A DNA stretch of 64,000 nucleotides from Candidatus Dormiibacterota bacterium (GTDB taxonomy: Bacteria; Chloroflexota; Dormibacteria; Aeolococcales; Aeolococcaceae): contig JAFARE010000013.1 in assembly GCA_019245575.1 (NCBI GenBank), forward strand, positions 10,580 to 74,579, written 5' to 3'. The notes beneath the pieces are model-generated. The model had not been told where the DNA came from and searched no databases. It worked only from the letters and a program-made list of their open reading frames with translations. A program made the translations under genes and the position numbers. Numbering within the stretch: position 1 is the stretch's first letter; the number at the start of each line of letters is the position of its first letter. Of this stretch, positions 23,015 to 45,434 are shown in pieces.

Positions 23015-23053
23015 GGCCTTCACGCCGCGACGAGCGCCGTACAATCCGCGTCC

Positions 23054-25869: not shown

Positions 25870-28527
25870 GTGCGGCGTTCTCGCCTTGCCACGTGTTTTG
25901 TGCTGCTTGCAGCCCTCGCGCTCGCCGCTCTCACCGCGCCCCGTCACGGTGCGGCCACCCCCGCCACGGCGGGGCACACGGCTCAGAAGCTGGAGGAGGA
26001 GGCCCCGCCGGGCGACGAGTTCCTCAACCAGCGCCTGGTCAACGTCGGCGGCGCGCTCACCGACAACGCATTCGCCCTGGCTGGCCAGCAGGCGCTCAGC
26101 GTTCGCGCTCAGACGGCCTCTGCCGATCCCGCCGACGCCACCGCGCAGTGGAGCTTCGACGGCCCGACCAACATCGACAACCCCCACGGCCAGGGCGGCG
26201 CCAACGACGGGGGCGGGCGGGTGGCGGACCTCGCCGTCGACCCGCTGCACGCCGGGGTGGTGTACGCGGCGAGCGCCGGCGGTGGTGTGTGGAAGAGCAC
26301 CGACGCGGGCAAGACGTTCGCCTCGGTGTGGCCGGTCTCGCTCCCGGAGGCGATGGGCGCCATCACCGTCGGTCCTGACGGCACCGTGTGGGCGGGCACC
26401 GGTGAGACCAACCCCGGCGGGGGCAGCATCACCTTCTTCGGCGACGGCATCTATCGCTCCACGGACGGCGGCAGCACGTGGTCGAACGTCGGGCTGACCG
26501 ACTCGTGGACCATCGCGCGCATCGTCGTCAACCCGGCGAACGCGAACCAGGTGTGGGTCGCGGTCTCGGGCAACCTGTTCCTCCCCGGCCACCAGCGCGG
26601 CGTCTACGTCACCAACAACGGGCTGACGAGCAACCCGAGCAGCGTGGTGTGGACACAGTCACTGGCGCCCCCGCTGGGCTCCAACGGCACCGGCACGCTC
26701 AGCGCCACCGGCGCCAGCGACCTGGCGATGAGCCAGCAGCACCCGAATGTGCTCTACGCGGCGATGTGGGACCACATCCGCACTCCCGATCACCGCACGT
26801 ACACGGGCAGCGGCTCCGGCGTGTGGAAGACGACGGACGGCGGCACGACATGGACGGAGCTGACGTCGGCGGCGAATGCGGTGACATCGGGACTGCTCGC
26901 CGACAACACCGCCAACGGGCGCATCGGCGTCGCGGTGGCGCCGTCCGATGACCACTACGTCTACGTCAACTACGCCAACGACCCGCTCGGCGCCTTCGAG
27001 GCGTGGTTCACGTCCACCGACGGTGGCGCGACGTTCTCCAAGCCGGCGCAGGCGCAGCTCGACCTGCGCATCCCGGTGACCAACTCGTCGTACGTGTACG
27101 GCTGGTGGTTCGCCAAAACGTTCGTCGATCCGAAGACTCCGACGAATGTCTGGGTGACGGGGCTGTGCCTGTGGTCGTCCACCGACGGCGGCAGCACCTT
27201 CCCAAACGACGACTGCAGCGTGCACGCGGACCAGCACAGCATGGAGTGGGACCCCAACGTCGCCAACCAGGTGTATCTGGGTGACGACGGCGGGTTCTTC
27301 ACGTCGACGCACAACGGCACGCCAGGAACCTTCGTGCCCGCGACGTACGAGCCGTGGCCGCAGTTCGACGGCCTCGACGTCAGCGAGCAGGATCCCACGC
27401 ACATCGCCGGCGGCCTGCAGGACAACGGGTCGCAGCGCAGCTGGGACAGCAACGGCAACGCCGTGGCGATGAACGGCTGGAACTCGATGTACGGCGGTGA
27501 CGGGCAGCAGAACCTGATCGACCCGCAGAACAACAAGATCGTCTACTCCTGCCTGCAGTACGGCAACTGCCAGGTGTCAACCGACGGGGGCAACACCGGC
27601 ACGGAGTTCGACAACGGACCCACCAGCCTCAACCCCGATCCCAACGGCACGGTGTCGGCGCGCAACGCGTACTTCACGCCGATGGCGTTCGACCCGAGCA
27701 ACCCCGACACCGTGTACTGGTCGGGCGACATCGTCAACGTGTCCAACAACGATGGCGCGAACTGGCGCGTCATCAGCCCCGACCTCGGCGGCCCCATTCC
27801 GGGCACCGAGGCGGACCCGCTGTACGCGGGTCACTACGGCGTGGTGACGACGATCTCGGTGTCCAAGAGCAACCACGACATCGTGTGGGTGGGCACCGAC
27901 TCGGGCAACGTGTGGATGACGAGCGACGCGACGTCGAATCCCACGATGCCCACGTGGACCCAGATCAGCGGGCTCGGCGTCACGAACTCCCCGCTGCCGA
28001 CGCGCTGGGTGTCGAAGGTGTATGTCGACCCGGACAACCCGCAGATCGTGTACGTCGGGTTCAGCGGCTACCGCGCGGGTGACAACAACCCCTACATCGA
28101 GCGCACCGACGACGGCGGGGCCACGTGGACTGACCTGAGCTCGGGCCTGCCCGAGGCGACGGTGAACGACATCACCCTGGCCGGCGGCCGCCTCTGGGTG
28201 GCGACTGACACCGGCATCTACGCGAGCGACGCCGCCCAGGATCCCACCATGTCGCCGTCCATCACCTGGCGGGAGATCGGCGACAACCTCCCGGCGATCG
28301 CGGTGACCGCGCTGCGCTACGTGCAGAGCAACACGACGCTGTACATCTCGACGTTCGGACGCGGTGTGTGGTCGCTGGCGCTGGCGCCGGCGACGTCGAC
28401 GCCGGAGGCCGGCGCCGCATTGTTGCTGCCGCTGGGCGGAGCACTCGCCGCGGGAGGCGCCGTGCTGCTGCGCCGCCGTCGAGCGCGACGGCGCGCTGCA
28501 ATGCAGCAGGCGAAGGGAGGGCAATGA
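25870..28527 (+). CDS. Secreted Asp-box (BNR) repeat beta-propeller protein (VPS10/GH74-like) with C-terminal anchor
   Basis: Signal peptide; many S/T-x-D-G-G-x-T-W/F repeats; HADQH; GGLQDNG; STFGRGVW; GGAGG RBS. Confidence 0.88.
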   Translation: MRRSRLATCFVLLAALALAALTAPRHGAATPATAGHTAQKLEEEAPPGDEFLNQRLVNVGGALTDNAFALAGQQALSVRAQTASADPADATAQWSFDGPTNIDNPHGQGGANDGGGRVADLAVDPLHAGVVYAASAGGGVWKSTDAGKTFASVWPVSLPEAMGAITVGPDGTVWAGTGETNPGGGSITFFGDGIYRSTDGGSTWSNVGLTDSWTIARIVVNPANANQVWVAVSGNLFLPGHQRGVYVTNNGLTSNPSSVVWTQSLAPPLGSNGTGTLSATGASDLAMSQQHPNVLYAAMWDHIRTPDHRTYTGSGSGVWKTTDGGTTWTELTSAANAVTSGLLADNTANGRIGVAVAPSDDHYVYVNYANDPLGAFEAWFTSTDGGATFSKPAQAQLDLRIPVTNSSYVYGWWFAKTFVDPKTPTNVWVTGLCLWSSTDGGSTFPNDDCSVHADQHSMEWDPNVANQVYLGDDGGFFTSTHNGTPGTFVPATYEPWPQFDGLDVSEQDPTHIAGGLQDNGSQRSWDSNGNAVAMNGWNSMYGGDGQQNLIDPQNNKIVYSCLQYGNCQVSTDGGNTGTEFDNGPTSLNPDPNGTVSARNAYFTPMAFDPSNPDTVYWSGDIVNVSNNDGANWRVISPDLGGPIPGTEADPLYAGHYGVVTTISVSKSNHDIVWVGTDSGNVWMTSDATSNPTMPTWTQISGLGVTNSPLPTRWVSKVYVDPDNPQIVYVGFSGYRAGDNNPYIERTDDGGATWTDLSSGLPEATVNDITLAGGRLWVATDTGIYASDAAQDPTMSPSITWREIGDNLPAIAVTALRYVQSNTTLYISTFGRGVWSLALAPATSTPEAGAALLLPLGGALAAGGAVLLRRRRARRRAAMQQAKGGQ

Positions 28528-30767
28528 CGATGCTCAGGAAGGGAATGGCGCGGTCGCTGCTGCTCGCCGCGGTCGTCGGTGCGAGCGCGTTCGCTCCGGC
28601 CGTCGTGTCGAGTACGCATGCCACTGCAGACGCCACCAAGACGTCGTGCACGCCGGATCCGGCGCTCGACAGCCTCGACCCCTGCCGCGCCGACACCGGC
28701 CAGGCCACCGACGACCAGGCCCACTACAGCTACACCACGGCCATCAAGTCGCACGTGCAGGTGCCGGTGCCGCAGACCATCGTCGACGCCATCAACCCGC
28801 CGCAGGGCGGCGCGCCCAACGTCGACACGATATGGATCGACTACATCCGTCCCAATGTCCCGGCGGGCGTGACCGTGCCGACGATCATGGATGCGTCGCC
28901 GTACTACAACACGCTCGGGCGCGGCTACGACGGCATCCTCAAGTCGCTCACCGATCCGAACGCGCCGGAACCCGTGAGCGTCGAGCGCTGTGCCGGCGCC
29001 AATCCGTGCACGAACTACGCGGACTTCCCGGAGTGGGAGGCGCACTACTTCGTGCCGCGCGGCTACGCGGTGGCGCTGATGGACCTGCGCGGCACCCGCA
29101 ACAGCAGCGGCTGTGAGGTGTACGGCGACAAGCAGGAGGCGCTCGACGCCGTGGCCGCCGTGGACTGGATCGCCGGACAGACCTGGTCCAACCAGCGCGT
29201 GGGCATGATCGGCGGCTCGTACGACGGCACGATGGCGAACGGCGCGGCCGCGCTGTACCCGCTGGCCGGGAAGTATCACAACGTCGACGGCCACGGCATG
29301 GACGCGCTGGCTGCGGTGGTGCCCATCCGCGCCATCGACCGCTGGTACGACTACCAGTTCTTCAACGGAGTCGAGGCCAACGGACAGGAGCTCGACCCGG
29401 AGCTGTTCACCGCGGAGCTGCCGGCGGAGGACTGGCCCACGAACGGGCCCACCACGGGCGATCCGACCTATGCGCAAGGGCTGGCGCAGCGAAAGTCGTG
29501 TCCCGCGTTCGCGCAGGTGGCCACCGACGAGGGCTACACGGCGCCGTACCAGGACACGCAGGACGCGGCCACCACCAGCTTCTGGAACAACCGCGACTAC
29601 CTGCAGTACACGCCCACGTGGAAGGCGGCAACGCTCTTCATCCACGGGCTCTTCGACAACAACGTCAAGACGATGAACTCCGGCCAGCTGTGGGATGCGC
29701 TCAACGCGCGCGCCACGCCGCCGCCCTTGCGATACCTCTGGTTCAACGGCGGCCATGCCGACCCCGACACACCCAGCGTGCAGGTGGAGAACCAGAACGG
29801 CCTGACCGCTGAGTACCTGATGCCGTACACGTGGATGCAGAAGTTCGAGCAGGAGGTGCACCAGTGGTTCCTGCAGTACCTCAAGGGCGTCGACGCCGGC
29901 GCACTGCAGGCGCCCAAGGTCGAGATCCAGCGCGACTACGACGACGCCGGCGACACATTGCAGCAGGGGCACTGGGACGCCTACTCGCAGTGGCCGGCGC
30001 CGGGAAGCGACACGGTGCTCCACTTCGACGCATCCAACAACACGGCATCCGCGAATCCCGCGGGCGCGGGCACCGTGCAGTGGGATGACGAGGCCACAGG
30101 CATGGCCGCACCTGCGAGCCAGTCGTTCGTCAGCGCGCCGTTCACCTCAGACACGCGCATCTCCGGCCAGTTCGAGTTCGACCTCAACATCTCCGCCGCC
30201 GGCGCCGACACCACAATCGCGGTGGAGGTGGATGACATCCCGCCGGGAGCGCTGACCGACACGACCTTCGCGACCGAGGACGTTTCCACCAACACGCATC
30301 CGTTCGCGTTCACCTACGGATACATCCGTGCCTTCTACCGCGCGTCGGTGCACCCGCGCGGCGCCTCGTATCCGACGGGCGGGTCATTCCTCACGCCGAA
30401 CACGCAGTACGCGATCAGCTTTCCGTCGACCTACACGGACTACGTGGTGCGGAGCGGCCACCGCCTGCGATTCACGTTCAGCAACGCATCGCCGTACAGC
30501 CTGCCCACGTATCAGGGCAATGTGGTGACGATGTACGCAGGGTTGAACGACGGCACCAGCCAGGTGCACATTCCCGTCGCCGCGACCGGACCGACCACCT
30601 CGACGCCCGAGTTCGGCGCCGGCGGCCCCACGGTCGCGGTGCTGGCCGGCGGCGTCATCCTCGTGGCAGCCGGCGCGCGCCGGCGCAGGTCATCGCGCCG
30701 CGTCCGGCGGGCGAGCTCCGGCGAGGCTCAGCCCCAGCCGAAGTTGTCCGAGAGCTCCGCAGAGTAG
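28524..30767 (+). CDS. Secreted CocE/NonD / Xaa-Pro dipeptidyl-peptidase (S15) family hydrolase with C-terminal anchor
   Basis: SPYY, FVPRGYAVALMDLRGT..S.GC, GGSYDG catalytic Ser, HGLFDNNVK, GGH; ATGA coupling to upstream gene. Confidence 0.88.
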   Translation: MTMLRKGMARSLLLAAVVGASAFAPAVVSSTHATADATKTSCTPDPALDSLDPCRADTGQATDDQAHYSYTTAIKSHVQVPVPQTIVDAINPPQGGAPNVDTIWIDYIRPNVPAGVTVPTIMDASPYYNTLGRGYDGILKSLTDPNAPEPVSVERCAGANPCTNYADFPEWEAHYFVPRGYAVALMDLRGTRNSSGCEVYGDKQEALDAVAAVDWIAGQTWSNQRVGMIGGSYDGTMANGAAALYPLAGKYHNVDGHGMDALAAVVPIRAIDRWYDYQFFNGVEANGQELDPELFTAELPAEDWPTNGPTTGDPTYAQGLAQRKSCPAFAQVATDEGYTAPYQDTQDAATTSFWNNRDYLQYTPTWKAATLFIHGLFDNNVKTMNSGQLWDALNARATPPPLRYLWFNGGHADPDTPSVQVENQNGLTAEYLMPYTWMQKFEQEVHQWFLQYLKGVDAGALQAPKVEIQRDYDDAGDTLQQGHWDAYSQWPAPGSDTVLHFDASNNTASANPAGAGTVQWDDEATGMAAPASQSFVSAPFTSDTRISGQFEFDLNISAAGADTTIAVEVDDIPPGALTDTTFATEDVSTNTHPFAFTYGYIRAFYRASVHPRGASYPTGGSFLTPNTQYAISFPSTYTDYVVRSGHRLRFTFSNASPYSLPTYQGNVVTMYAGLNDGTSQVHIPVAATGPTTSTPEFGAGGPTVAVLAGGVILVAAGARRRRSSRRVRRASSGEAQPQPKLSESSAE

Positions 30768-30874
30768 CCCCAGCCGAAGTTGTCCGCCGAGTAGCCCCAG
30801 CCGAAGTTGTCCGCCGAATCCCGCGAGTATCCCCAGCCGAAGTTATCGCACGGCTTCGTGGTGGTCCGGGTCAT
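30728..30874 (-). CDS. 48-aa peptide with four DNFGWG repeats (missing from ORF track)
   Basis: MTRTTTKPCDNFGWGYSRDSADNFGWGYSADNFGWGYSAELSDNFGWG*; RBS GGGAGGAG 7 nt before ATG; synonymous differences between copies. Confidence 0.8.
   Translation of the reverse strand: MTRTTTKPCDNFGWGYSRDSADNFGWGYSADNFGWGYSAELSDNFGWG
30731..30847. repeat. Four direct repeats of CCCAGCCGAAGTT(G/A)TC
   Basis: Unit spacings of 36, 27 and 36 nt, all multiples of 3. Confidence 0.92.
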
Positions 30875-30958
30875 GTCCTGTCTCCTCCCGCGGTCCCGTC
30901 CGCACCCCGGACGGCGACCCTCGGTGGCTGAAGCCTGCGGGTGGGACCTTTCCGGAAC

Positions 30959-31906
30959 CTAAAGCGGAGCTAAAACCGGTTCCGGGGAACGGGGCGCGGC
31001 TTCAGCCATCTCGTCGAGGCGCACCAGCGCGATGCCGGCAACCACCAAAACGCCACCGGCGAGCTGGACGGGGTTCAGCCGCTGCCCGAGCAGCAGCCAG
31101 GCGAAGCCGACCGCGGCCAGGACCTCACACAGGCCGAGGAAGGAGGCCAGCTTCGAGCCCAGCAGCCGCACCGCGGCGATGCCGCTGACGTAGGCGACGA
31201 CCGCCGCCACGAGCGACAGGCCGAGCACAGGCACCAGCCAGGACACCGGCCTGGCCAGCAGGATCACATCGACGAAGGCGGCGTGCAGCGGCAGCACGTG
31301 AACGGCGCCGGCGATCGCGAGCGTGACCGCGCCGACCACGAGCCCGCCCCACGCCATCACGAGCGGCGGCACGCCGTCGTCGGCGTGCGCGGCCAGGATG
31401 AAGTAGGCGGCCAGCCCCACGGCGGCGCCGAGCCCCCAGAGGACGCCGATGAAGTCGACGCGGTGCGCACCGGCCAGGTCGAGCACGAGCACCAGACCCG
31501 CGAGGGCCGCCGCTCCCGCGACGGCGGTGAGCAGCCTCGGCCGGCGGCCCTGCCGAATCCAGCCCCAGGCCACCACGAGCAGGATGCCCGAGTACTCGAG
31601 GAGGAGGGCGACGCCCACCGACAGGCGCGAGACTGCGTTGAAGTAGCAGAACTGCGCCGCGGCCACGGCCACCACGCCGTAGACCAGCAGCAGGCGCATC
31701 GACGCCCACGCGGGGCGCTGCCGCCGAAGCTGGACGAGCGCCGGCGTCGTCAGAACCAGCGCGGCGATGCCCACACGCGTGACGACCGCGGCGCCGGGGG
31801 TCCAGCCGGCGCTGATCAGGCTCGAGGCAAACGCGCCGGCCGTGCCGAAGGTGGTGCCGGAGAGGACACCCAGGGCCAGACCCGCGTTGCTCGGCGACCT
31901 GCGCAT
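30959..31906 (-). CDS. EamA/DMT family transporter
   Basis: About 10 TM helices; YFNAVSRLSVGVALLLEY; ASFLGLCEV. Confidence 0.9.
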   Translation of the reverse strand: MRRSPSNAGLALGVLSGTTFGTAGAFASSLISAGWTPGAAVVTRVGIAALVLTTPALVQLRRQRPAWASMRLLLVYGVVAVAAAQFCYFNAVSRLSVGVALLLEYSGILLVVAWGWIRQGRRPRLLTAVAGAAALAGLVLVLDLAGAHRVDFIGVLWGLGAAVGLAAYFILAAHADDGVPPLVMAWGGLVVGAVTLAIAGAVHVLPLHAAFVDVILLARPVSWLVPVLGLSLVAAVVAYVSGIAAVRLLGSKLASFLGLCEVLAAVGFAWLLLGQRLNPVQLAGGVLVVAGIALVRLDEMAEAAPRSPEPVLAPL

Positions 31907-32000
31907 GACGGGGCCTCCCAGGCTGCCCGGACCGGTGCGGTAATGACCAACCCAGGACTTGGACGCTTACAGTCTAGCCAGCCGGGGGTAAGATGTCAAC

Positions 32001-32534
32001 GTGCCGTTCACTCATGACACGGAACTGGCGCTGCAGTCGGCGGCCGCGCTGGTCAACAGCGCCGAGGACGAGGGCGACCGCCTTGCCGACATGGCGGGAC
32101 TGGACCGCTTCGTGGCGGAGTGGAACTGGACGGGCAGCCGCCGCCGGGACGCAAGCGAGCTCGAGCAGGTGCGGGCACTGCGGCCCAGGCTGCGGCGTCT
32201 CTGGGAGCTCGACGAGGATGGCATCGTGACCGAGGTGAACGCGATCCTGCGCGACACGGGCGCGTTGCCGCAGCTGGTCAGGCACGGCGGGTGGGACTAC
32301 CACGTGCACGCGACGCCGCCCGACGCGCCGCTCGCTGACCGCATGGCGGTGGAAGCGGCGATGGCGTTTCTGGACGTCGTCGTCCTGAAGGAGATGGACC
32401 GCCTGCGTGTGTGCGGCGCGGACGACTGCGATGACGTCGTCGTCGATCTCTCCAAGAACCGGTCCCGCCGCTACTGCAGCGCCACCTGCTCGAGCCGCGT
32501 GAACGTCGCCGCGTTTCGCGCGCGCAACCGCTGA
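32001..32534 (+). CDS. ABATE / CGNR zinc-finger protein
   Basis: FTHDTE, LVNS, LVRHGGWDYHVH, CGADDC...DLSKNRSRRYCSATC; divergent from EamA. Confidence 0.9.
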   Translation: MPFTHDTELALQSAAALVNSAEDEGDRLADMAGLDRFVAEWNWTGSRRRDASELEQVRALRPRLRRLWELDEDGIVTEVNAILRDTGALPQLVRHGGWDYHVHATPPDAPLADRMAVEAAMAFLDVVVLKEMDRLRVCGADDCDDVVVDLSKNRSRRYCSATCSSRVNVAAFRARNR

Positions 32535-32537
32535 CGC

Positions 32538-33071
32538 ATGAGCGCTCCCGCTGTGCGTCTCGTCCCCGTCGCGGTGGATGACGCGGTGGCGCTGCACGAG
32601 CTGCTGGTCCGCAACCGCGAATACCTCGCGCCGTGGTCGCCGGCGCGCGACGAGGAGTGGTATGGCCTCGAGCAGCAACGGGAACGTCTTGCGGCTGCAG
32701 TCGCGCAACACGGTGAAGGTTCTGCGTATTACTTCAAGATCGTGGCCGGCGATGGCGCCGTCGGGCGCCTCGATCTCAACAACGTCGTGCGCGGTGTGTG
32801 GCGCAACACAAACCTCGGCTACTGGGTGGCCGAGAGCGAACGCGGCCGCGGTCACGCCACCGCGGCCGTGAAGGCGGCGGTCACCTTCGCCTTCAGCGAA
32901 GCCGGCCTGCACCGTGTGGAAGCGGCGGTCATGCCGCGGAACCGTGCCTCACTCCGCGTGGTCGAGAAGGCCGGCTTCAGACGGGAAGGCGTTGCGGAAC
33001 GCTACCTGCGCATCAACGGCCGGTGGGAGCAGCACGTCATCCATGCGATCACCGCCGAGGAGGCGATGTGA
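32538..33071 (+). CDS. GNAT acetyltransferase, RimJ/RimL family
   Basis: LGYWV, GRGHAT, LHRVEAAVMPRN, GFRREG, INGRW. Confidence 0.9.
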   Translation: MSAPAVRLVPVAVDDAVALHELLVRNREYLAPWSPARDEEWYGLEQQRERLAAAVAQHGEGSAYYFKIVAGDGAVGRLDLNNVVRGVWRNTNLGYWVAESERGRGHATAAVKAAVTFAFSEAGLHRVEAAVMPRNRASLRVVEKAGFRREGVAERYLRINGRWEQHVIHAITAEEAM

Positions 33072-33078
33072 CCGGGCG

Positions 33079-35370
33079 CTATGCCGAGACGCGAAAGGTG
33101 GATTGGCGGGAGTCCGCGTGCTGCCCGGCGCGCAGCCGCTGCTCGATCATCCTCGCCGGCATCGGTCTCGCCAGCAGGAACCCCTGACCCAGGTCGCAGT
33201 CGAACGCGCGCAGCGAGGCGAGATCAGCGTCTGTCTCGATGCCCTCGGCAACGGTCTCGAGGTTGAGCATGCGCCCCATGCTGATGATGGCGCGCGCGAC
33301 CGCGGCGCGCTCCTCGCTGGTGGCGACGCCTGTCACGAACGAGCGATCCACCTTCAGGGCGTCGATGGGAAACCGCAGCACATGGCCGAGTGACGAGTAC
33401 CCGGTGCCGAAGTCATCCAGAGCCAGCCGCACACCCATGCGTTTCAACTCCTGCAGGCAGACATCGGCCGCCTCCGTGTCACGCAGCAGCGCCGTCTCCG
33501 TCACCTCGAGTGTGAGCAGGCTGGGGTCGAACCGCTCGTCGGCGAGAATCTCCTGCACCCGCGCCGCCAGGTCCGCGCGCGGCACCTGCCGCGCCGAGAG
33601 GTTGACGCTCACACCGAGCATGCACGCGGCGGGGAAGTCCGTCTGCCAGCGGTGCACCTGGCGCAGCGCTTCGCGCAGGATCCAGTAGCCGATCGGGACG
33701 ATGAGGCCCGTGTCCTCAGCCAGCGGGATGAAGTCCGACGGCGGCACCAGGCCGAGGGTCGGATGCTCCCACCGCACAAGCGCCTCCACCGAGTGCAGAT
33801 CGCCGGTGCGCAGGTCGACGAGTGGCTGGTAGTGGAGCACGAACTCGTTGCGCTCGAGGGCGCGTCGCAGCTCGCCTTCGAGCTGTAGCCGCTGCACCGC
33901 GGCCGAGTGCATTCCGGGTTCGAAATGAAAGCTGCTGCCGGAGCCGTCCATCTTGGCGCGGTACATCGCCAGGTCGGCGTCGCGAAGCATCGTGCCGGCA
34001 TCGGCCTGGCCGTGTGAGCTCACCGCGATGCCTATGCTGCCGCTGATGGACACCTCCGACCCGCTGAGCAGGAACGGAGGCCGCAGCGCCTCGAGAATGC
34101 GGTCGGCCACAGTCGCCGCGTCGACGGGCCCTGACGCCTCCTCGATCAGCACGGCGAACTCGTCGCCGCCCAGCCGCGCCGCGGTATCGGGCTCGCGCAG
34201 GCAGCCGCGCAGACGCTCACTGACATTGATGAGCAGCTGGTCGCCGGCAGCGTGGCCGAGGCTGTCGTTCACGTTCTTGAACCGGTCCAGGTCCAGGAAC
34301 AGCACGGCCACCTGGCCGTGATCGCGCCGCGCGCGCGCGAGCGCGTGGTCCAAGCGCTCAAAGAACAGCGCGCGGTTGGGCAGGCCGGTGAGCACGTCGT
34401 GAAACGCGAGATGCTGCATCTCGTCCATCGTTCGGGCGTCCGTCAGGGCAAGGCTGGCGTGCTCGGCGAACGCCGCTAGGATTTCCTGGTCGTTCTCGTC
34501 GAAGTGGCGTCCGAGCTGCGTCGACGCGACGGAGATGCTCCCGATGACGCGCCCGGCCTCACGCACCGGGGCCGCCATCGCGGCGACAAAGCCGCGCGCG
34601 GCGAGCTGGGGCAGCACGCTGGTGGCCTTCGCGTAGTCGTACATGACGACCAGGCGATCCTCCGCGATCGCGTGTCCGCTGGCGCCGACCCCCACTGGCG
34701 CCCGGGCGACCTCCGCCGCCGTTTCAGGCGGAAGGCCGGCCGACGAGACCAATGACGAGGTGTGCTCGTCGTCCTGGTCCACCAGGCGCACGGCAGAAGC
34801 CTCGGTGTCGAGCAGCTCGCGCGCTCCTGCGGTGATCGCATCGAGGGTGTCGCTGAGCGGCGCGCGGCGCGTGATGGCGCGCTGGATCGCCGAGAGGCGC
34901 TCCAGCAGCAGCTGGCGCTCCTGCAGCGTGGCTCGCAGCGAACGCTCACGATCCAGTGCGCTGAACACATCGAGTGTCAGGCTCAAGCTGCGCGCCATGC
35001 CGCGCATGAGCGTCGCCTCCTCGCGGCTGAAGGGCTGATCGCCGAGGCGCGCGACGACCAGATGTCCATCGCCGTCGGTTTCAAACGGCGCGCTGGTGAG
35101 ACGGCAGCGCCCCACTCCCTTGACGTCGATCTCCTGCGCGCGCGCGGCGACGGCGGCGATCAGGTGGCGCACGTCGACCCGGCCGCCGGGGAAGCCCACC
35201 GATGCTGTGACATGGCCGCCCTCGATGACGGCGCCCAGCTCCGCCTCGAGGGTCTCCGCCGCCCAAACGACACCGCGGTCCGCTGCGGCTCCGCGTTCTC
35301 CCGCGGACGTGATGGCGCCGAGGAACTCAGCAAGCTGCGCGCTGATCCAACCCTCGGCGATCCGTGTCAC
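33079..35370 (-). CDS. GAF-GGDEF-EAL diguanylate cyclase/phosphodiesterase
   Basis: HDVLTGLPNR, REPD I-site, GGDEF, EAL, DDFGTGYSSL. Confidence 0.93.
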   Translation of the reverse strand: MTRIAEGWISAQLAEFLGAITSAGERGAAADRGVVWAAETLEAELGAVIEGGHVTASVGFPGGRVDVRHLIAAVAARAQEIDVKGVGRCRLTSAPFETDGDGHLVVARLGDQPFSREEATLMRGMARSLSLTLDVFSALDRERSLRATLQERQLLLERLSAIQRAITRRAPLSDTLDAITAGARELLDTEASAVRLVDQDDEHTSSLVSSAGLPPETAAEVARAPVGVGASGHAIAEDRLVVMYDYAKATSVLPQLAARGFVAAMAAPVREAGRVIGSISVASTQLGRHFDENDQEILAAFAEHASLALTDARTMDEMQHLAFHDVLTGLPNRALFFERLDHALARARRDHGQVAVLFLDLDRFKNVNDSLGHAAGDQLLINVSERLRGCLREPDTAARLGGDEFAVLIEEASGPVDAATVADRILEALRPPFLLSGSEVSISGSIGIAVSSHGQADAGTMLRDADLAMYRAKMDGSGSSFHFEPGMHSAAVQRLQLEGELRRALERNEFVLHYQPLVDLRTGDLHSVEALVRWEHPTLGLVPPSDFIPLAEDTGLIVPIGYWILREALRQVHRWQTDFPAACMLGVSVNLSARQVPRADLAARVQEILADERFDPSLLTLEVTETALLRDTEAADVCLQELKRMGVRLALDDFGTGYSSLGHVLRFPIDALKVDRSFVTGVATSEERAAVARAIISMGRMLNLETVAEGIETDADLASLRAFDCDLGQGFLLARPMPARMIEQRLRAGQHADSRQSTFRVSA

Positions 35371-36539: not shown

Positions 36540-36825
36540 CTTCGAATCTCCTTGCGAGCGCGCGGTCTCGCTGGTCGCGTCCGGACGTCTACACACAGCA
36601 GTGGAACAGGGCGGCCGTGCCCCCGCTGCTGACCTGATCAAATCGGCCGCGGCCCGTGGGGCGGCGGGGGCAAGGGCTTCGTAGCGCGATCGTTGTCGGC
36701 CCGCGACAGGGGGCCCTCCCGATGCGCGAATCCGCAAGAATTCCGCCCGGACGCGCGTTTACGGGAAGGGCACGACATCTCGTGCCCCCCGGGAAGGCCG
36801 GCGACACCAACGAGAGGAGACCGAC

Positions 36826-38100: not shown

Positions 38101-38105
38101 GCCGC

Positions 38106-38669: not shown

Positions 38670-38703
38670 GCCGCCAGCATAAGCAGCCGGGCGGCCGGGA
38701 CGT

Positions 38704-39159
38704 CTAGGGGATGTCGGGCAGGCGCGCCACCTGCAGCCAGAAGCGGTCGATCGAGCGGACCACCTCGGTGAACTCACTGAAGTCAACCGGCTTCACGACG
38801 TAGCAGTTGGCCCGCAGCTCGTAGGCGCGCTGCACGTCAGCGGGGCGCGCCGACGTGCTGAGCACGATCACGGGAATGCTGCTGAGCGCGCGGCTGTCCT
38901 TGATCTCAGCGAGCACCTCCATGCCGTCTTTGCGGGGCAGGTTCACGTCGAGCAGGACGAGCGCAGGCCGCGGAGCGCCGTCGAAGGGCGGCCGGCGGTG
39001 CAGGAACGACACCGCGGCGTCACCGTCGCCCACCACGTACAGGCGGTGGGGGACCTGTGCATGGCGCAGCGCGGTCTCGGTCAGCCGGACGTCGGCCCGG
39101 TTGTCCTCGACGACCAGGATGTTGACGGAAGGCGGCTGAGCGCGCGGCCCCGCATTCAT
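38704..39159 (-). CDS. Single-domain response regulator (Rcp1-like)
   Basis: VEDN, LLDVNLP, IPVIVLSTS, ANCYVVKP, FW. Confidence 0.9.
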   Translation of the reverse strand: MNAGPRAQPPSVNILVVEDNRADVRLTETALRHAQVPHRLYVVGDGDAAVSFLHRRPPFDGAPRPALVLLDVNLPRKDGMEVLAEIKDSRALSSIPVIVLSTSARPADVQRAYELRANCYVVKPVDFSEFTEVVRSIDRFWLQVARLPDIP

Positions 39160-39962
39160 CCGTCCGCCGGCGCCTGTGCAGGTAGCGTGAAATGAAACGC
39201 GGCGCCGCCGAGCGGTGAATCCTCGACCCAGATGCGCCCGCCGTGGTTGTCGATGATGCGCTTGCACGTGGCGAGACCGATGCCGCTGCCGGGATAACTC
39301 TCGCGGTCGTTGAGGCGCTGGAACATCTCGAAGATGCGCTCCCGATGCCGCGGCTCGACGCCGATGCCGTTGTCGGACACTACGAAATGCCAGACATCTC
39401 CCTCGTCGCGCGCTGCCCGCACCATGATGTGGGGGGACCCGTCGGGCGGACGGAACTTGAGCGCATTGGCGAACAGGTTCTGCATGAGCTGGCTGAACTG
39501 CGTTCGGTCGACCGAGACGGTCGGCATCCGCGCGGGCACGTCGACGATCGCATACGTCTCGAGGATCTGCGCAGCAAGCCCGTCGAGCACCTGGTTGATG
39601 ACGGTGCCGCTCTGCACCCGGCGCCGATCCGCACTGTGTACGCCGACGCGCGAGTAGTCCAGGAGGTCGTTGATGAGCGTCTTCATGCGGCGGGTTCCGT
39701 CGACGATGAAGGCGATGTACTCGTCGGCCTCCTCGTCGAGCCTGCCGCTGTACTCCTGCGCCAGCAGCTGGGCGAATCCGGAGATGGAGCGCAACGGCTC
39801 CGACAGGTCGTGCGACACCGCGTAAGCGAAGTGGCGCAGCTCGGCGTTGTACCGGGCCAGCTCGGCGGCGCGGATGGTCAGCTCGTGGCGCAGGCGGGCG
39901 ATGTCGGCGCGGTCGGAGGGGTTGCCCGGGCCGCGGCCAGATACGTTGGCCGCGGTGTTCAC
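39156..39962 (-). CDS. Histidine kinase (HisKA + HATPase) without evident sensor domain
   Basis: FAYAVSHDLSEPLR, NALKF, DNGIG, GSGIGLA; start uncertain (39962 or 40022). Confidence 0.85.
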   Translation of the reverse strand: MNTAANVSGRGPGNPSDRADIARLRHELTIRAAELARYNAELRHFAYAVSHDLSEPLRSISGFAQLLAQEYSGRLDEEADEYIAFIVDGTRRMKTLINDLLDYSRVGVHSADRRRVQSGTVINQVLDGLAAQILETYAIVDVPARMPTVSVDRTQFSQLMQNLFANALKFRPPDGSPHIMVRAARDEGDVWHFVVSDNGIGVEPRHRERIFEMFQRLNDRESYPGSGIGLATCKRIIDNHGGRIWVEDSPLGGAAFHFTLPAQAPADG

Positions 39963-40015
39963 GCGGCCGCGCAGGACCCTGAACGCCGCGGGCGGCACAG
40001 CCGGCGCGAGGGCGG

Positions 40016-41848
40016 CTACCACCGTGGATCTCGCGCCATCAGACGCCGCATCTCCGAAGCAGGCAGCGCCGCGGAGAAGAGATGCCCCTGGGCCATGTCG
40101 CATCCCAGCTCGCGCAACGCCGCCAGCTGCTCGGCGGTCTCGACGCCCTCGGCCACCACCGTCAGGCCCAGCGCCCCGCCGATCGTGAGCAGCGCGCGGA
40201 CGATCGCCGTGCCGCCCTGGTCGCTGCCGACATCCGACAGCAGCGCGCGGTCGATCTTCAGGATGTCGACCGGAAGACGGCGCACGACGTCGAGCGTCGC
40301 GTGGCGTGTGCCGAAGTTGTCGACCGCGAGCTTCGCGCCCAGCTCCTTGAGCGCTTCAAGGGTCCGCGTCAGGGCCTTGGGACACTCCACCAGCGACGTC
40401 TCGGTGATCTCGAGACACAGCACGGGCGAGTCCGGTCCCGGCCCGAGGTCGCCGAGCGCGGCAGCCACAGTGTCGACCACCTTGGGGTCCATGAGCTCGC
40501 GGGTGGACATGTTCACCGCGACCGTCAGGTTGTTGCAGACAGAGCCGGCGAGCCATTCCCGCGCCTGACGCAGCGCGGAGCGCACCGTCCATGCGCCGAA
40601 GCCCTCGATGAGTCCCGAGTGCTCGGCCTCGGCGAGGAAGTCACCCGGCAGCAGGACGCCGCGGCGCGGATGGCGCCAGCGCAGCAGGGCCTCAGCTCCA
40701 CAGATCGTGCCACGGCTGACATCAACGATCGGCTGATACACAGCCTGCAGCTCGCCGCGCTGCAGCGCATGGTGCAGGTCGGTCTGCGTCTCATGACGCG
40801 TGACCGCCGCCGCGTGCATGGGCGCCTCGAACTGGACCGCGCGTCCGCGGCCGGCCTGCTTGGCCCGGTACAGGGCGATGTCGGCGTCGCGCAACAGGCT
40901 CTCGGGGTCGTCGTCAGGTGAGGTGGCGAAGGTGAAGCCGATGCTGGCGTCGATGTACGCCTTGTGCTCGCCGATGACCATCGGGGCCCGCAGCATCTTC
41001 AGCATCCGGCCCGTGATCGCCTCCAGCTCCTCGCGGCCGTTGATCCGCTCGCACAGAACCGCGAACTCGTCGCCGCCGATGCGCGCCACCGTGTCCGCCG
41101 GGCGCAGCACCGCTCGCATGCGCTCGGCGACGATGGCCAGCAGCTCGTCGCCGGCGCTGTGGCCGAGGCTGTCGTTGACGATCTTGAAGCGGTCGAGGTC
41201 GACCATCATCACCGCCGCCAGGCTGTGTCCGCGCGACGCCCGCGGCACCGGGGTCTCCGAGCCGGGACGGAGGCGCGTCCTCATCCTGGCGAGCGCGCTG
41301 CGCACGCGGTCCTCGAACAGCATGCGGTTGGGAAGCCCGGTGAGCGCGTCGTGGTACGCCAGGTGGTGGAGCTGCCGGTCGACGCGCATGCGCTCGATGG
41401 CGTAGCGCAGCGAGCGGCGCAGCGTGCCGGCGTTGACGTCACCCTTGGTGAGGTAGTCCTGCGCGCCCTCGCGCAGCGCCTGCAGCCCGACACTCTCGTC
41501 GTCGCGCCCGGTGAGGACGATGATGGGAGCATCAGGCGCGGCCGTGCGGATCTGCACGAGCCCGTCCAGACCCTGCGCGTCCGGGAGCCCGAGGTCGAGG
41601 ATCACGCACGCCGTGTCGCGGGCCGCCAGCGCGGTGACCGCGGCGCCGGCGCTGCCCACGCTGACCAGCTCGAGCCGGTCCTTGCCGGGCTCGTCACGCA
41701 ACATCCGGCGCACCAGCGCGGCATCGCTCGGGCTGTCCTCCACCACGAGCACGCGCTTGGGCGCGCCATCAGGCGCTGCCCTGACGGGATATGCCGCCGT
41801 GCGGCTGCCCGCGATCTCCACCGCGGGTTCGGCCGCTTGCATCCGCAT
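40016..41848 (-). CDS. REC-GGDEF-EAL protein
   Basis: VEDS, LDLGLPD, GAQDYLTK; GGDEF; EAL; loop 6 reads DNFGTRHA; start approximate. Confidence 0.9.
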   Translation of the reverse strand: MRMQAAEPAVEIAGSRTAAYPVRAAPDGAPKRVLVVEDSPSDAALVRRMLRDEPGKDRLELVSVGSAGAAVTALAARDTACVILDLGLPDAQGLDGLVQIRTAAPDAPIIVLTGRDDESVGLQALREGAQDYLTKGDVNAGTLRRSLRYAIERMRVDRQLHHLAYHDALTGLPNRMLFEDRVRSALARMRTRLRPGSETPVPRASRGHSLAAVMMVDLDRFKIVNDSLGHSAGDELLAIVAERMRAVLRPADTVARIGGDEFAVLCERINGREELEAITGRMLKMLRAPMVIGEHKAYIDASIGFTFATSPDDDPESLLRDADIALYRAKQAGRGRAVQFEAPMHAAAVTRHETQTDLHHALQRGELQAVYQPIVDVSRGTICGAEALLRWRHPRRGVLLPGDFLAEAEHSGLIEGFGAWTVRSALRQAREWLAGSVCNNLTVAVNMSTRELMDPKVVDTVAAALGDLGPGPDSPVLCLEITETSLVECPKALTRTLEALKELGAKLAVDNFGTRHATLDVVRRLPVDILKIDRALLSDVGSDQGGTAIVRALLTIGGALGLTVVAEGVETAEQLAALRELGCDMAQGHLFSAALPASEMRRLMARDPRW

Positions 41849-42008
41849 CACCGCGATCATCCGGCGGCTCCGATGACGGCCGGCCCACGCGAACGCCACC
41901 GGATCGTCACAAATGTACGACGGATGGTGACGCGAAAGAGCGGTTTGACGCTCCTGCGTGGCGCCGCTATGATCGCCTGAAGGGGCAAAGGGTTTGGGGG
42001 TCGGGTAC

Positions 42009-42506
42009 ATGGGATTGGCGCATATCTCCCGCATCGCTGTGGCGCTCACCGCCGCAGCCGGGTCGTTCGCCGCTGCTGGGGCCGCCGGCGCCGGAGCGCA
42101 GGGCGCAAGCTGCCCGGTGGGGGACGAGGCCGTGACCAACGTCCACTACGCGATCTTCGATCCCAACAACACCAGCCACAACGCGACGCGCCTGCGCGGC
42201 AACGTGGACAGCGGCGACCAGGTGAATGTGCTGTTCGACGTGCCGGCGCTGCCGGCGGGGTGCTCGGACGTGACACTGACCATCGCCACGTACACGTCGC
42301 CTGTGTCGCCGCGGCATATGAACAAGCTCACGCTGTTCTCGCAGCAGTCGCAGAGCTTCATCGCCGGCGGCGGCTACGAGATGTCGGCGACGATCGCCCC
42401 CCACACGTCCGCGGCGACGCGCCATTTCCAGATCGACTTTGCGACGGGACCGGTGCTCACGCCTCCTGACTACGACTCCAACCTGATCGACTCCGCGCAG
42501 CACTGA
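42009..42506 (+). CDS. Secreted hypothetical protein
   Basis: Signal peptide; two Cys; coding-like codon bias; HFQIDFATG. Confidence 0.7.
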   Translation: MGLAHISRIAVALTAAAGSFAAAGAAGAGAQGASCPVGDEAVTNVHYAIFDPNNTSHNATRLRGNVDSGDQVNVLFDVPALPAGCSDVTLTIATYTSPVSPRHMNKLTLFSQQSQSFIAGGGYEMSATIAPHTSAATRHFQIDFATGPVLTPPDYDSNLIDSAQH

Positions 42507-42797
42507 CCGTCTGAACCCAGCGGCCCGCAGACCGTGTTTGAAAGGGGATGGATCGGCGCTATGCCCCGCTGACCACGGTCCGCAGCAGCGGATCGTGCGG
42601 ACTGAATTGCGCGATGCGCGTAGGACCCCGAGACACAAGCGCAGTCGGTGGTCCAGCCGGTGCCGTCCGGCATGACGGCCACGAAACTCCGGCCCTCCGC
42701 GAAATGGCCTGGTGACGTGAACACCAGGGGCCGTGGCCCCTGTCGTTACTGGAGCCTGTTGGCCGAAGAAGTCCCAGTGATTTGCTTGCGGCGTCCG

Positions 42798-45434
42798 TCA
42801 GACACGGGCGCGATTGCGGCGGCGGCGCAACGCAGGCACGGCGAGTGCGACGGCGACGCCCACCGCGGGCAGCATGATCGCCACCGGTGCATCCGGTGTC
42901 GAGGTCGTGGGGATGCTTCCGACCACGTAATCGCAGGTCGGGCCACCTGAATCCGCCTTTTCGAGCAAGCCGCCGGACTGCGGCGTGCCGGCGAGCGTGT
43001 CCGTCTCACCGGCTGGGCCGGTGAGCGTCGCGCCGAGCGGCGGCGACCCCACGTTCGCGAGTGGCACGTCGACTTCGACGACGCCGTTCGCTCCCAGCGT
43101 GAAGTGCCCAGTGTCGTTGGTGTTGGTCGACGCGTTGTACTGATGCGTGGTGCCGGTCACGGTGACCGTGCCGTCGTGGTACGTCGGCATCGAGCCGGGG
43201 ACCGATGAGAGCTCGGCATTCGAGAAGTACACGGTGCCGTTGTAGGTCCATATCGAGTACCACTCGTACGTCTCGCCCGCGGGAACAGTCTCGTTGAGGT
43301 TGGTGACGGTCAGGAGCGTGCGCAGCGTCGTCCCGTCGGCGCTGGTGCTGAACGCGCCGTGCAGCAGCGAGAGCTGCGGAGCGCTGTTGCCGCCGAAGTC
43401 GTTGACGGTGTGCGGCGGGTTGGTCCAGAGGCCGGACAGCGCGGAGCAGGTGCCGCCGCCCGTCTGGCAGGAAACCAGGCCGGGCTGGCCACAGTCCTGC
43501 GGCGCCGGCGCCGCCACGTTGTTGGTGGGGGTGAACGTGTTGTTCCCCGTGACGTCCTGACCCAGGTGGGTCACATTGGGTGCGCCTAACCCCGACGTGT
43601 AATCCCATCCGCTCGGGTCGGTGATGCTGTTGCGCGGCTGGCTCGTGTAGAAGCCATTGCCCGTCGGCGGGCTGGTGGGCGGGCCGCCGCCGATGTCGAA
43701 GAAGTCGTTCACATCGGCGGTGGGATTGAGGCCAATCGCGTACAGCGACGGGTTGGCGAAGCCGGCGGTGTAGACACCGCCAACCTTGGCCGACGTCGCG
43801 GCCTGGATGCGCGTCCACATCCCCATCCACAGCGGCGACGAGAGGCTGGTCCCGCCACCGGCGGAGTCTTTGACGCCGCCCATGGTCACCGCGTAGCCAT
43901 TGGAGATGACGTCGCCCGACTGAGCTGCGACGTCAGGGATGCCGCGGCACGGCGTGGCGGACGCGTACGGTGTGCCGTCCGGCTGCGAGACGCAGTCCTG
44001 CGTGTCGAGATACGTGATCCCGTGCTGGTACGTCGGCTCGGGGATATAGAACGTGTTGCCGCCACCGGTGTGCGTCCACGAGGTCTCTTGGGCGCGCGTC
44101 GCGTTGGACGCAGGAGACGTCAGCGTGTTCGGCGTGCTGTAGAGCACCGTGCCACCGACGGCGGTCACGTACCGGCTCGACGCGGGGTAGTTCGTCTCCG
44201 GGTACGCCTGGTTGAGGATGCCGTTACCGGCGCCGATGACCGTCGCTTGCACCACGGGGCACGACGAACCGGTGTCGCCCGTCGACGAGAACAGCGTCTT
44301 GCCTTCGATCGTCGCCTGCTGCAATGCGGTCTCGGAACCCTGCGTGAACATGACGCCGGCGCTCCCCGCCAGGCCGCCGAGGCCGGTGCCCACGCCGCCC
44401 TGGGTCACAGGGCTCGTCGGATCCTGCTCGCACTCACCGAACGAGGCATTGGCCTGCATGACGTTTGCGTCGCCCTCGAACGCCTGGAAGTCGGCGAGGA
44501 CGGATGGATCGGTGAGGTCCTTGGCAAAGATCAACGTTTCGCCGTACGCCTTGGGCGCCATTCCAGTCGACGCCTGCGTGTCGATGTCCCACTCGCCGTT
44601 CCCCGACGTGTCCTGGAAATCGTCGTTGATTGATTGGATCGTGATCGGGATCTGCGGCAGCGCGAACTCGCTCTCGAAGGCGCGCAGGTCGGAAATGGTG
44701 CCGGAGACGGCGCCTTCGCCCAGCACGGCCATCTGCTGGCCCTGTCCGAAGTTCGCCGTGCTGCTGGAGATGTTGGTCGGCTGGCCGTAGATCGACCACA
44801 TGTCCTGAGGCGTGGTGAGGCCGATGCACTCGCTGCCCGCGCAGTTGCCCTGCATGGTGTGCGCGCGCAGCAGGTTGTTCAGCCCGATCACGCCGGTCAC
44901 GTCGACACCTGCCGGCACCGTCGGGCCGCTCGTGTTCGCGTAGAACTGGGTGCCGCCGATCGAGTAGTCGTCGATGGATACAGAGAACGTGCTCTCGGCC
45001 TGGCTCACCGTTCCGGACAGCAGCAGGTAGCTGCGGGTGTTTGAAGCGAAGGCCACCTGCATGCCGGCACGCGTCACCCATGAGGCGACGGTCTGGTAGT
45101 CGGCGGTCGGAATGCCGAACTGCGCCGCCACCTGGTCGGGTGTGAGGAACTGGTGGTACTGGGCGCTGCCGGGCGTGTAGATGGCGTCGTACGCGGCCTG
45201 CTGCGCGGCGAGCGCGGCCGGGTCGGACAGGAGGACGCCCACCTGAACCGGGGTCGAGGGCGCGGCGGGCGCGCCGGTCACGCCTGCGAGGCCTGGGAAG
45301 ACGTCATTGGTCAGGACCGTCGTCGGGATCGAGCTCCCCGCGGCGAGGGCCGCGATCGGGCTCGAGAACAACGCAGCCGCCAGAGCTGCGCCCGCGAGCA
45401 CACTCGCCCCACGTTTCAGCGAGCGAACAGTCAT
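42798..45434 (-). CDS. Secreted S53 (sedolisin/kumamolisin) peptidase with pro-domain, extra beta domain and C-terminal anchor
   Basis: YHQFLTP pro-domain; EWDID; STGDTG; YPASS; PDVAA; GGTSLSSP; AGGAGG RBS. Confidence 0.92.
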   Translation of the reverse strand: MTVRSLKRGASVLAGAALAAALFSSPIAALAAGSSIPTTVLTNDVFPGLAGVTGAPAAPSTPVQVGVLLSDPAALAAQQAAYDAIYTPGSAQYHQFLTPDQVAAQFGIPTADYQTVASWVTRAGMQVAFASNTRSYLLLSGTVSQAESTFSVSIDDYSIGGTQFYANTSGPTVPAGVDVTGVIGLNNLLRAHTMQGNCAGSECIGLTTPQDMWSIYGQPTNISSSTANFGQGQQMAVLGEGAVSGTISDLRAFESEFALPQIPITIQSINDDFQDTSGNGEWDIDTQASTGMAPKAYGETLIFAKDLTDPSVLADFQAFEGDANVMQANASFGECEQDPTSPVTQGGVGTGLGGLAGSAGVMFTQGSETALQQATIEGKTLFSSTGDTGSSCPVVQATVIGAGNGILNQAYPETNYPASSRYVTAVGGTVLYSTPNTLTSPASNATRAQETSWTHTGGGNTFYIPEPTYQHGITYLDTQDCVSQPDGTPYASATPCRGIPDVAAQSGDVISNGYAVTMGGVKDSAGGGTSLSSPLWMGMWTRIQAATSAKVGGVYTAGFANPSLYAIGLNPTADVNDFFDIGGGPPTSPPTGNGFYTSQPRNSITDPSGWDYTSGLGAPNVTHLGQDVTGNNTFTPTNNVAAPAPQDCGQPGLVSCQTGGGTCSALSGLWTNPPHTVNDFGGNSAPQLSLLHGAFSTSADGTTLRTLLTVTNLNETVPAGETYEWYSIWTYNGTVYFSNAELSSVPGSMPTYHDGTVTVTGTTHQYNASTNTNDTGHFTLGANGVVEVDVPLANVGSPPLGATLTGPAGETDTLAGTPQSGGLLEKADSGGPTCDYVVGSIPTTSTPDAPVAIMLPAVGVAVALAVPALRRRRNRARV

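Follow-up and report, generated by a model that had tools for sequence, protein, structure and literature searches.

The described systems closest to the one reported here are the C-terminal sorting systems PEP-CTERM/exosortase, PExPT-CTERM/XrtJ, PGF-CTERM/archaeosortase A and LPXTG/sortase. Here, we analyse three secreted proteins encoded in a stretch of 64,000 nucleotides (the window; contig C5:10580-74579) of G000, a Dormibacteria-like metagenome-assembled genome (MAG; 2.60 Mb, 46 contigs, 89.6% complete). All three end in a tail with the layout P[AT]TSTP[ED], about 21 uncharged residues and RRRR. We consider it likely that these tails are exosortase sorting signals, representing a Dormibacteria-specific P-E-x-P flavour of the PEP-CTERM class.

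According to a PEP-CTERM account (PMC1569441), the PEP-CTERM/exosortase system (EpsH, XrtA/XrtB) is characterised by a tripartite tail with Pro-Glu core, helix, and Arg cluster, by many unrelated signal-peptide-bearing carriers per genome, by a patchy distribution that follows a membrane enzyme of the EpsH family (PF09721) whose Cys, Arg, and His are conserved, and by an enzyme gene placed beside polysaccharide-synthesis genes. The Dormibacteria system is alike in each of these respects. In contrast, its motif is P-E-x-P and not P-E-P, and the domain and named Xrt models stay below cut-off on it. Moreover, that account describes PEP-CTERM in outer-membrane bacteria only, whereas neither Omp85 nor LpxC was detected in the Dormibacteria hosts. 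An extra C-terminal enzyme region is shared with EpsH-EpsI fusions, but in Dormibacteria this region matches neither EpsI nor another family.

The nearest named signal is PExPT-CTERM (TIGR04200, the XrtJ target), which has the same P-E-x-P spacing and gives the best E-value on typical tails. Its model, however, describes one small dedicated target family, whereas up to 30 unrelated carriers occur in Dormibacteria. PGF-CTERM/archaeosortase A of haloarchaea belongs to the same enzyme superfamily and also operates without an outer membrane; the removal of the tail helix and attachment of a membrane lipid, as outlined in a preprint (10.1101/2023.06.07.544157), provide a plausible model for Dormibacteria. 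It differs in its PGF motif, archaeal hosts, and prenyl-derived lipid, and the Dormibacteria enzymes stay below the cut-off of every archaeosortase model.

LPXTG/sortase shares the tripartite design, its tails occupy the same position on S15 hydrolase homologs of other lineages, and sortases are present in G000. However, the tails contain no LPXTG motif, sortase does not track them, and the enzyme fold is unrelated. Further, XrtG is a "Gram-positive" exosortase paired with a family-2 glycosyltransferase (GT2), resembling the Dormibacteria arrangement of an exosortase-family gene beside a GT2 gene in bacteria that probably have no outer membrane. In contrast to this likeness, the XrtG model (TIGR03110) scores 21.8 bits on one Dormibacteria exosortase (on contig C28; cut-off 102.75) and does not match the other (on C39). 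No multi-protein target set is known for XrtG.

Results

Three unrelated secreted proteins carry the tail

The proteins and their putative sorting tails lie in the window as follows.

25870-28527, plus strand: secreted BNR/sortilin-Vps10-like beta-propeller protein, 885 aa (PF15902, 44.4 bits, cut-off 33)
28387-28524, plus strand: putative sorting tail of the BNR protein; PATSTPE 28387-28407, core P-E 28402-28407
28524-30767, plus strand: secreted S15/CocE-NonD hydrolase (X-Pro dipeptidyl-peptidase-like), 747 aa, likely start ATG 28524
30591-30764, plus strand: putative sorting tail of the S15 hydrolase; PTTSTPE 30591-30611, core P-E 30606-30611
42798-45518, minus strand: secreted sedolisin-like (S53) peptidase, 906 aa; pro-kumamolisin activation domain (PF09286, 85.3 bits)
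42801-42911, minus strand: putative sorting tail of the S53 peptidase; PTTSTPD-APVAIMLPAVGVAVALAVPAL-RRRR-NRARV

An earlier note on this DNA, made from the sequence alone, had described three tails of motif-transmembrane helix-basic layout on proteins with N-terminal signal peptides and unrelated folds. This description holds. Open reading frames (ORFs) and tails were confirmed in the GC-rich window (66-74%), all three N-termini are signal-peptide-like according to a home-made heuristic (that of the BNR protein is MRRSRLATCFVLLAALALAALTAP), and profile matches assign the proteins to Sortilin-Vps10/BNR, Peptidase_S15 with PepX_C, and pro-kumamolisin. The layout of a C-terminal sorting domain is borne out, as is its presence on unrelated secreted proteins. 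The S15 hydrolase matches PF02129 (Peptidase_S15) with 138.5 bits, PepX_C with 46.6 bits, and TIGR00976 with 97.9 bits (cut-off 66.3). The BNR protein reaches 66.7 bits against the F510_1955 glycosylhydrolase model (cut-off 175) and is glycosidase-like at best.

The C-terminus of the BNR protein reads ...APATSTPEAGAALLLPLGGALAAGGAVLLRRRRARRR..., with the motif beginning at 28387; P-E is followed by the helix, RRRR (28471-28482), and a 14-aa basic/polar end. In the S15 hydrolase (...GPTTSTPEFGAGGPTVAVLAGGVILVAAGARRRR..., motif beginning at 30591), the helix and RRRR (30678-30689) precede an unusually long end of 25 aa. The S53 peptidase ends in ...IPTTSTPDAPVAIMLPAVGVAVALAVPALRRRRNRARV and is the sole one among the three to carry the typical second proline (PDAP). 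Its paralog on contig C41 (37% identity) has a TPEAP tail.

A six-frame translation of the whole genome gives 23,498 ORFs with a length of 60 aa or more; the exact heptamer P[AT]TSTP[ED] occurs in them three times, solely at the three window C-termini, while about 0.01 occurrences per proteome are expected by a hand estimate from amino-acid frequencies. At the DNA level the three stretches differ at synonymous sites and are thus not recent copy-paste. The three-tail observation is confirmed and chance is excluded.

The conserved core is P-E-x-P

The heptamer itself, which the earlier note had taken for the signal, was rejected in that role: the genome contains no copy beyond these three, and S15 orthologs do not preserve it. 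A same-genus S15 ortholog ends ...SGVPDLASS...RRRR, i.e., without the heptamer, and 27 of the 31 closest S15 homologs bear xP[ED]-helix-RRRR tails that have no heptamer and a varied upstream sequence. What is conserved instead is P-E-x-P, on 26 proteins.

This family emerged from a scan for a helix followed by an Arg cluster near the stop codon, which returned 60 ORFs, many with xPE[AV]P just ahead of the helix. A regular expression yielded 27 candidate tails; 23 were kept by eye, and their last 60 aa were aligned to give profile A1. The other four (C32_50170, C35_73591, C36_300697, and C38_263) were dropped by eye, the helix or the ORF being unconvincing. Run on G000, profile A1 recovers the 23 seeds and three new tails, all at 28.5 bits or more, with the next match at 17.0 bits. 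Based on this gap, G000 holds 26 tails. The window tails are themselves seeds and hence match by construction, with 56.0 bits (BNR), 65.9 bits (S53), and 35.2 bits (S15), the last being the lowest score among the 23.

In the 24 tails parsed by script, P is present in 23, followed by E in 22 and by D in two; a proline stands at +3 in 19 and a threonine at -1 in 12. The spacer between P-E and the Arg cluster measures 18-27 residues, and the cluster begins 7-29 residues from the C-terminal end in all 24. PEP itself is found in no parsed tail, its place being taken by P-E-[AVT]-P. As read from these sequences, the family signature is [TS]-x-[TVA]-P-E-[AVT]-P, a hydrophobic stretch of about 18-24 residues, and RRR(R) near the C-terminus. 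The window tails are the least typical members of the family, with PEAG (BNR), PEFG (S15), and PDAP (S53).

Haft has listed eight attributes of tripartite C-terminal sorting domains (section 5 of preprint 10.1101/2023.06.07.544157), and all of them, in the form given in that section, are found in the G000 tails. The tails are C-terminal, occur in multiple copies per genome, and combine a hydrophobic helix with a basic cluster. Their signature is near-invariant except for its third residue, the second proline, which is weaker and which two of the window tails lack. Signal-peptide-like N-termini were assigned to 21 of the 26 carriers by the home-made heuristic, which is not SignalP; among the other five, two are cut by contig ends, two are signal-peptide-like by eye, and one had been assigned a wrong ORF, which was corrected. 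Outside the tail the carriers are diverse: with the last 60 aa removed, 287 of 325 pairs show no blastp similarity (E<=1e-3), and the carriers fall into 12 similarity groups; among them are BNR/sortilin, phosphoesterase (two), pro-kumamolisin (two), S15, and neocarzinostatin-like proteins. Conversely, 81 of 89 more distant S15 homologs have no tail, seven have an LPXTG-like tail at the same place, and one has an xPE tail (PEVP); two further S15 homologs are LPXTG-like by eye. The tail is a modular element, swapped in homologs with LPXTG-type tails or with none.

No curated model covers the motif

None of the curated CTERM models of Pfam and NCBIfam reaches its cut-off on the motif part of the tails, which agrees with the earlier note's comparison. 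For the three window tails, the best matches are MYXO-CTERM (16.4 bits, cut-off 20), LAETG (9.4 bits, cut-off 30), and Pfam Gram_pos_anchor (13.1 bits, cut-off 20). Across the 23 tails, MYXO-CTERM registers on seven, PExPT-CTERM (TIGR04200) and LPXTG_anchor on six each, and PEP_CTERM on four, all sub-threshold with the exception of LPXTG_anchor. The PEP-CTERM model TIGR02595 registers on its four tails at E<=10 (best E 0.075) with 8.4-13.9 bits against a cut-off of 16, and PF07589 matches one of the 23. The nearest named signal, TIGR04200, reaches at most 19.9 bits against a cut-off of 40 and is aligned at profile positions 26-57, its tail part.

The LPXTG_anchor model (TIGR01167) exceeds its cut-off of 15.9 bits for two of the 23 tails (17.2 and 16.5 bits). 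These matches start past P-E, so the model aligns to the helix and Arg part alone; in the BNR tail, residues 23-46 of the 60-aa tail are matched to profile positions 9-32. There is no L-P-x-T-G in the motif, and the earlier statement that the motif is not LPXTG stands.

Two exosortase-family genes lie elsewhere in the genome

The earlier note had placed the processing enzyme outside the window, correctly, and had left its family open; two exosortase-family genes are present in G000.

C39:90430-92208, minus strand, outside the window: exosortase-family gene (PF09721, TIGR04178)
C28:29904-31502, minus strand, outside the window: second copy of the exosortase-family gene (PF09721, TIGR04178)

Both proteins comprise about 600 aa and are 46% identical. 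They score 74.7 and 63 bits on PF09721 (cut-off 25.7), and 52.2 and 48.3 bits on TIGR04178 (cut-off 23). No named Xrt, Crt, or Art subfamily model (XrtA-Y, CrtA-C, ArtA-F) reaches its cut-off on either, the best being XrtA with 44.8 against 208 bits, and XrtJ is absent from the matches of both at E<=0.1. The expected catalytic residues are conserved. Seven of eight aligned homologs retain the Cys (in SACSGA) and the His (in YHAVIG), and all eight retain the Arg. Across 44 homologs, no variation is seen at R267 and H288, while conservation of C222 is at least 90%.

Modelled with AlphaFold2 (mean pLDDT 81.5, pTM 0.76), the C39 exosortase consists of a core of eight transmembrane helices, a linker, one more helix, and an alpha+beta domain of about 200 aa, which is predicted to be extracytoplasmic. 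The C-terminal approximately 250 aa match no Pfam or NCBIfam family at E<=10, EpsI included, and the modelled C-terminal domain finds no fold in the PDB at E<=0.001. The top match of the C39 model was 3lyd_B (E 0.058), accompanied by weak matches to LpqN/MTC28-like alpha+beta folds; nothing is concluded from these. The subfamily comprises at least 131 protein clusters, whose organism, where a source is named, is mostly Candidatus Dormibacteraeota/Dormibacteria. Where a source gives a homolog a name, it is the generic "exosortase/archaeosortase family protein" except for two, which are longer fusions named DUF4328 domain-containing protein. A collection of species genomes, searched with a single exosortase protein, returned two loci, one in a Candidatus Dormibacteraeota bacterium and one in a Candidatus Acidiferrales bacterium.

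A divergent homolog in a relative (G037, C1:927926-929446; 33% identity over about 520 aa) has neither the catalytic Cys nor the His and no PF09721 match; judged by its sequence, this gene seems to have decayed or to have been repurposed. The G037 genome contains no P-E-x-P tail. In G000, the gene found where a substrate would be expected, upstream of the second exosortase (C28:31948-33921), encodes a PstS-like/neocarzinostatin-domain protein that ends in a helix and RRR, with no P-E motif.

Tails and exosortase genes in relatives

We compared 41 genomes of the same order, G000 included, at a tail threshold of E<=1e-4. An exosortase homolog is present in nine and tails in ten: both occur in seven, exosortase only in two (G009 and G037), tails only in three (G005, G006, and G024), and neither in 29. 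The seven genomes with both have 26, 16, 6, 25, 30, 4, and 2 tails. The single tail match of G024 is not a P-E tail. In a class sample of 151 genomes, in which 43 tail candidates were scored per genome and tail counts are hence lower bounds, 12 genomes have both, seven tails only, ten exosortase only, and 122 neither; the exosortase-only matches are mostly weak fragments. The tails-only group consists of G063, with one tail, G149, and five genomes in which PF09721 was searched for (G082, G096, G121, G135, and G156). A weak exosortase fragment was found in G119. Tails and exosortase thus co-occur patchily in relatives. Exosortase tracks the tails imperfectly and sortase does not track them: sortase (PF04203) is present in 39 of the 41 relatives, tails in ten, and sortase can consequently not account for the tails. 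G000 has three sortase genes, and sortase without tails or exosortase is found in G004, G027, G032, and G036. These four, like G063 and G119, are flagged as unpublished genomes; they enter the counts, but none of the conclusions rests on them.

Gene order is more telling than co-occurrence counts. In ten genomes (G000, G002, G012, G029, G057, G084, G098, G110, G118, and G127), which span five GTDB families, the exosortase gene follows a tail-bearing gene, the end of which is less than 500 bp away. In G000, G002, G084, G098, G110, G118, and G127, the neighbouring tail has PEVP, PEAP, or PESP. Tails lie within a few kb of the exosortase in G007, G011, and G043; the one in G043 has PESP, and the one in G011 has AEAP, in which the first proline is absent. 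Most genomes with the system have a single tail-exosortase pair, and many carriers occur in few genera alone, which suggests a dedicated pair that was later expanded.

Two genomes from another family of the class counted as tails only (G135, C16:6751-7709; G156, C263:11-308) have TPELP tails immediately beside a different PF09721 exosortase (148 and 135 bits), which is shorter than the fused subfamily of about 600 aa and closer to the canonical form. It may be that two enzyme subfamilies act on this one motif flavour.

Genomic context and host envelope

Directly downstream of the C39 exosortase lies a GT2 gene (C39:88518-90536; PF13632, 85.7 bits), whose product has an N-terminal MshEN domain (57 bits), a module that binds cyclic di-GMP (c-di-GMP). 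It is followed by a PMT_2-type glycosyltransferase and then by methyltransferases. Downstream of the C28 exosortase, a second GT2 is encoded together with a sortase. In 7 of 11 loci of relatives, the position of the C39 GT2 is taken by a homolog of it; in G029 the match is weaker, partial, and at the edge of the locus. A polysaccharide link of this kind is known for PEP-CTERM/EpsH systems (PMC1569441).

In the window, two GGDEF-EAL proteins (33079-35370 and 40016-42139, both minus strand) are encoded between the tail-bearing genes, accompanied by a FIST protein and a histidine kinase/response regulator pair. The system for sorting and polysaccharide synthesis may be tied to c-di-GMP. The S15 hydrolase ATG overlaps the TGA of the BNR gene (ATGA, 28524-28527), which suggests co-transcription and translational coupling of the two genes. 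A 730-aa secreted protein encoded immediately upstream of BNR (23463-25655, minus strand) combines two He_PIG Ig-like repeats with an InhA-like MAM domain. It bears no sorting tail, and tagging is therefore not universal among the secreted proteins of the neighbourhood.

Omp85 (PF01103) was found neither in G000 nor in any of five other system-bearing genomes (88-94% complete), and LpxC (PF03331) was not found in G000; both were detected in diderm controls. The hosts are therefore probably without an outer membrane, a conclusion that is strong but, for incomplete MAGs, not final. Dormibacterota are placed beside Chloroflexota within Terrabacteria in PMC10608941, and according to PMC1569441 all PEP-CTERM bacteria have an outer membrane.

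Discussion

Weighing the exosortase reading

Taken as exosortase signals, the tails bring together a P-E-x-P core shared by 26 carriers, two exosortase-family genes, and a gene order kept across five families. Several points weigh against this reading. G005 (four tails, 84% complete) and G006 (eight tails, 79% complete) yielded no PF09721 gene, and G082, G096 (a single contig), and G121 have one or two VPE-type tails and no PF09721 match. Conversely, G009 contains an intact-looking exosortase homolog and no tail at the threshold used. The class sample gives lower bounds, as noted, and the co-occurrence tables are not statistics, because related genomes are not independent. Since no outer membrane is evident here, the destination of the carriers is not transferable from the PEP-CTERM model, and every mechanistic step is drawn by analogy. 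Finally, neither the BNR tail nor the S15 tail has the second proline, and no seed scores lower than the latter, so the window proteins are possibly poor or lapsed substrates.

The alternative that survives best, which we still regard as improbable, is that the tails are plain uncleaved C-terminal anchors on the outer face of the cytoplasmic membrane, with P-E-x-P acting merely as a helix cap or linker. Pro/Thr/Ser-rich linkers before anchors are common, cleavage is put forward by analogy only, and the few genomes with one or two such tails and no exosortase found would fit. A cap or linker, however, would sit poorly with a P-E-x-P that is near-invariant across otherwise unrelated proteins and kept in the exosortase-adjacent gene over five GTDB families. 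Moreover, the genomes with multiple tails are the exosortase-bearing ones (G005 and G006 apart), and the Cys/His-less homolog of G037 resides in a tail-less genome.

We give little credence to the tails as sortase substrates, in which xPxTS (APATS, GPTTS, IPTTS) would serve as a degenerate LPXTG-type motif for one of the three sortases. All three sortase genes pass PF04203, and a regular expression found no canonical LPXTG substrate for them in G000, perhaps with the exception of one NPFTG tail (C13). TIGR01167 passes its low cut-off for two tails, and distant S15 homologs end in real LPNT[GAS]/LPATGG tails at the same place. Yet these TIGR01167 matches cover the helix and Arg part only, motif position 1 is A, G, or I and not L, xPxTS is missing from the other 23 tails and from the S15 orthologs, and the 39 relatives with sortase include nearly all the tail-less ones. 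The C13 tail belongs to a 394-aa ORF (reverse-complement offsets 22087-23272) ending in ...SNPFTGGPPHPAP-helix-RRRRR, the only NPxTG/LPXTG-like tail found in the genome; on the basis of that ending, the ORF is a possible substrate for one of the three sortases.

Comparably slim is the chance of a new sorting system whose enzyme lies outside the known sortase, exosortase, and rhombosortase families, which is what the earlier note's lineage-specific system amounted to. The sub-threshold CTERM models and the few tail-bearing genomes with no exosortase detected speak for it. A recognisable exosortase-family gene, however, co-occurs with and adjoins tail-bearing genes, and the motif is one residue off PEP. 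The system is lineage-restricted, as claimed, but it is of the exosortase kind with a PEP-CTERM-class tail.

Least credible is MYXO-CTERM-type, Cys-dependent processing by a CPBP-family glutamic intramembrane protease: TIGR03901 is the model matching most tails (7/23; best E 0.0076; S53 tail, 16.4 bits) and a Cys lies within 25 aa upstream of the motif in 13 of 24 tails, but every score is below the 20-bit cut-off, the Cys varies in distance and is missing in 11 of 24 tails including BNR and S15, and the Cys within the motif of MYXO-CTERM-type signals is invariant according to 10.1101/2023.06.07.544157.

Proposed mechanism

Returning to exosortase sorting, we infer recognition, cleavage, cleavage site, and anchor from sortase and archaeosortase A as analogues (preprint 10.1101/2023.06.07.544157). 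Carriers would be exported via Sec by their N-terminal signal peptides. The carrier would be held in the cytoplasmic membrane by its tail helix, so that the Arg cluster lies within the cell and P-E-x-P at the outer face, where the motif would be recognised by an exosortase-family cysteine enzyme, one of the two paralogs (C39 or C28). The enzyme would then cut off the helix and Arg tail, and the carrier would be transferred to a surface acceptor, by analogy with archaeosortase A and sortase. The acceptor would likely be a membrane lipid or a polysaccharide made by the GT2 encoded beside the exosortase.

A wider picture, which we offer tentatively and hold to be rather doubtful as a whole, is that Dormibacteria may run a multi-substrate exosortase system. 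A one-enzyme, one-target cassette ancestral to the class, composed of a P-E-x-P-tailed protein, an exosortase with a novel ectodomain, and an MshEN-GT2, would have expanded in a few genera to 16-30 secreted hydrolases. Attached by covalent bonds to a membrane lipid or to the exopolysaccharide of the cassette itself, these could form a c-di-GMP-controlled, enzyme-decorated matrix of an oligotrophic soil bacterium.

Novelty and meaning

Our literature search on exosortases in Dormibacteria, on PExPT-CTERM/XrtJ, and on PEP-CTERM in Chloroflexota, which covered article texts, returned nothing relevant. What is new is an unmodelled signal flavour and an unnamed exosortase subfamily, and not a new sorting principle or mechanism. 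For annotation, a tail HMM together with an enzyme HMM would, in each genome, give names to dozens of surface proteins now labelled "hypothetical" and would end stray "LPXTG anchor" calls.

The lineage concerned consists of widespread, uncultured soil bacteria without outer-membrane markers. In ecological terms, the tails indicate that peptidases, phosphoesterases, and BNR-propeller proteins are kept tethered and not released. A dedicated pair has apparently grown into a set of about 30 substrates, which makes the lineage suited to studying how new clients are gained by sorting systems. Knowledge of exosortase systems comes almost wholly from bioinformatics, and their PEP-CTERM type was defined as a trait of outer-membrane bacteria; the Dormibacteria system is useful for considering exosortases in cells without an outer membrane.

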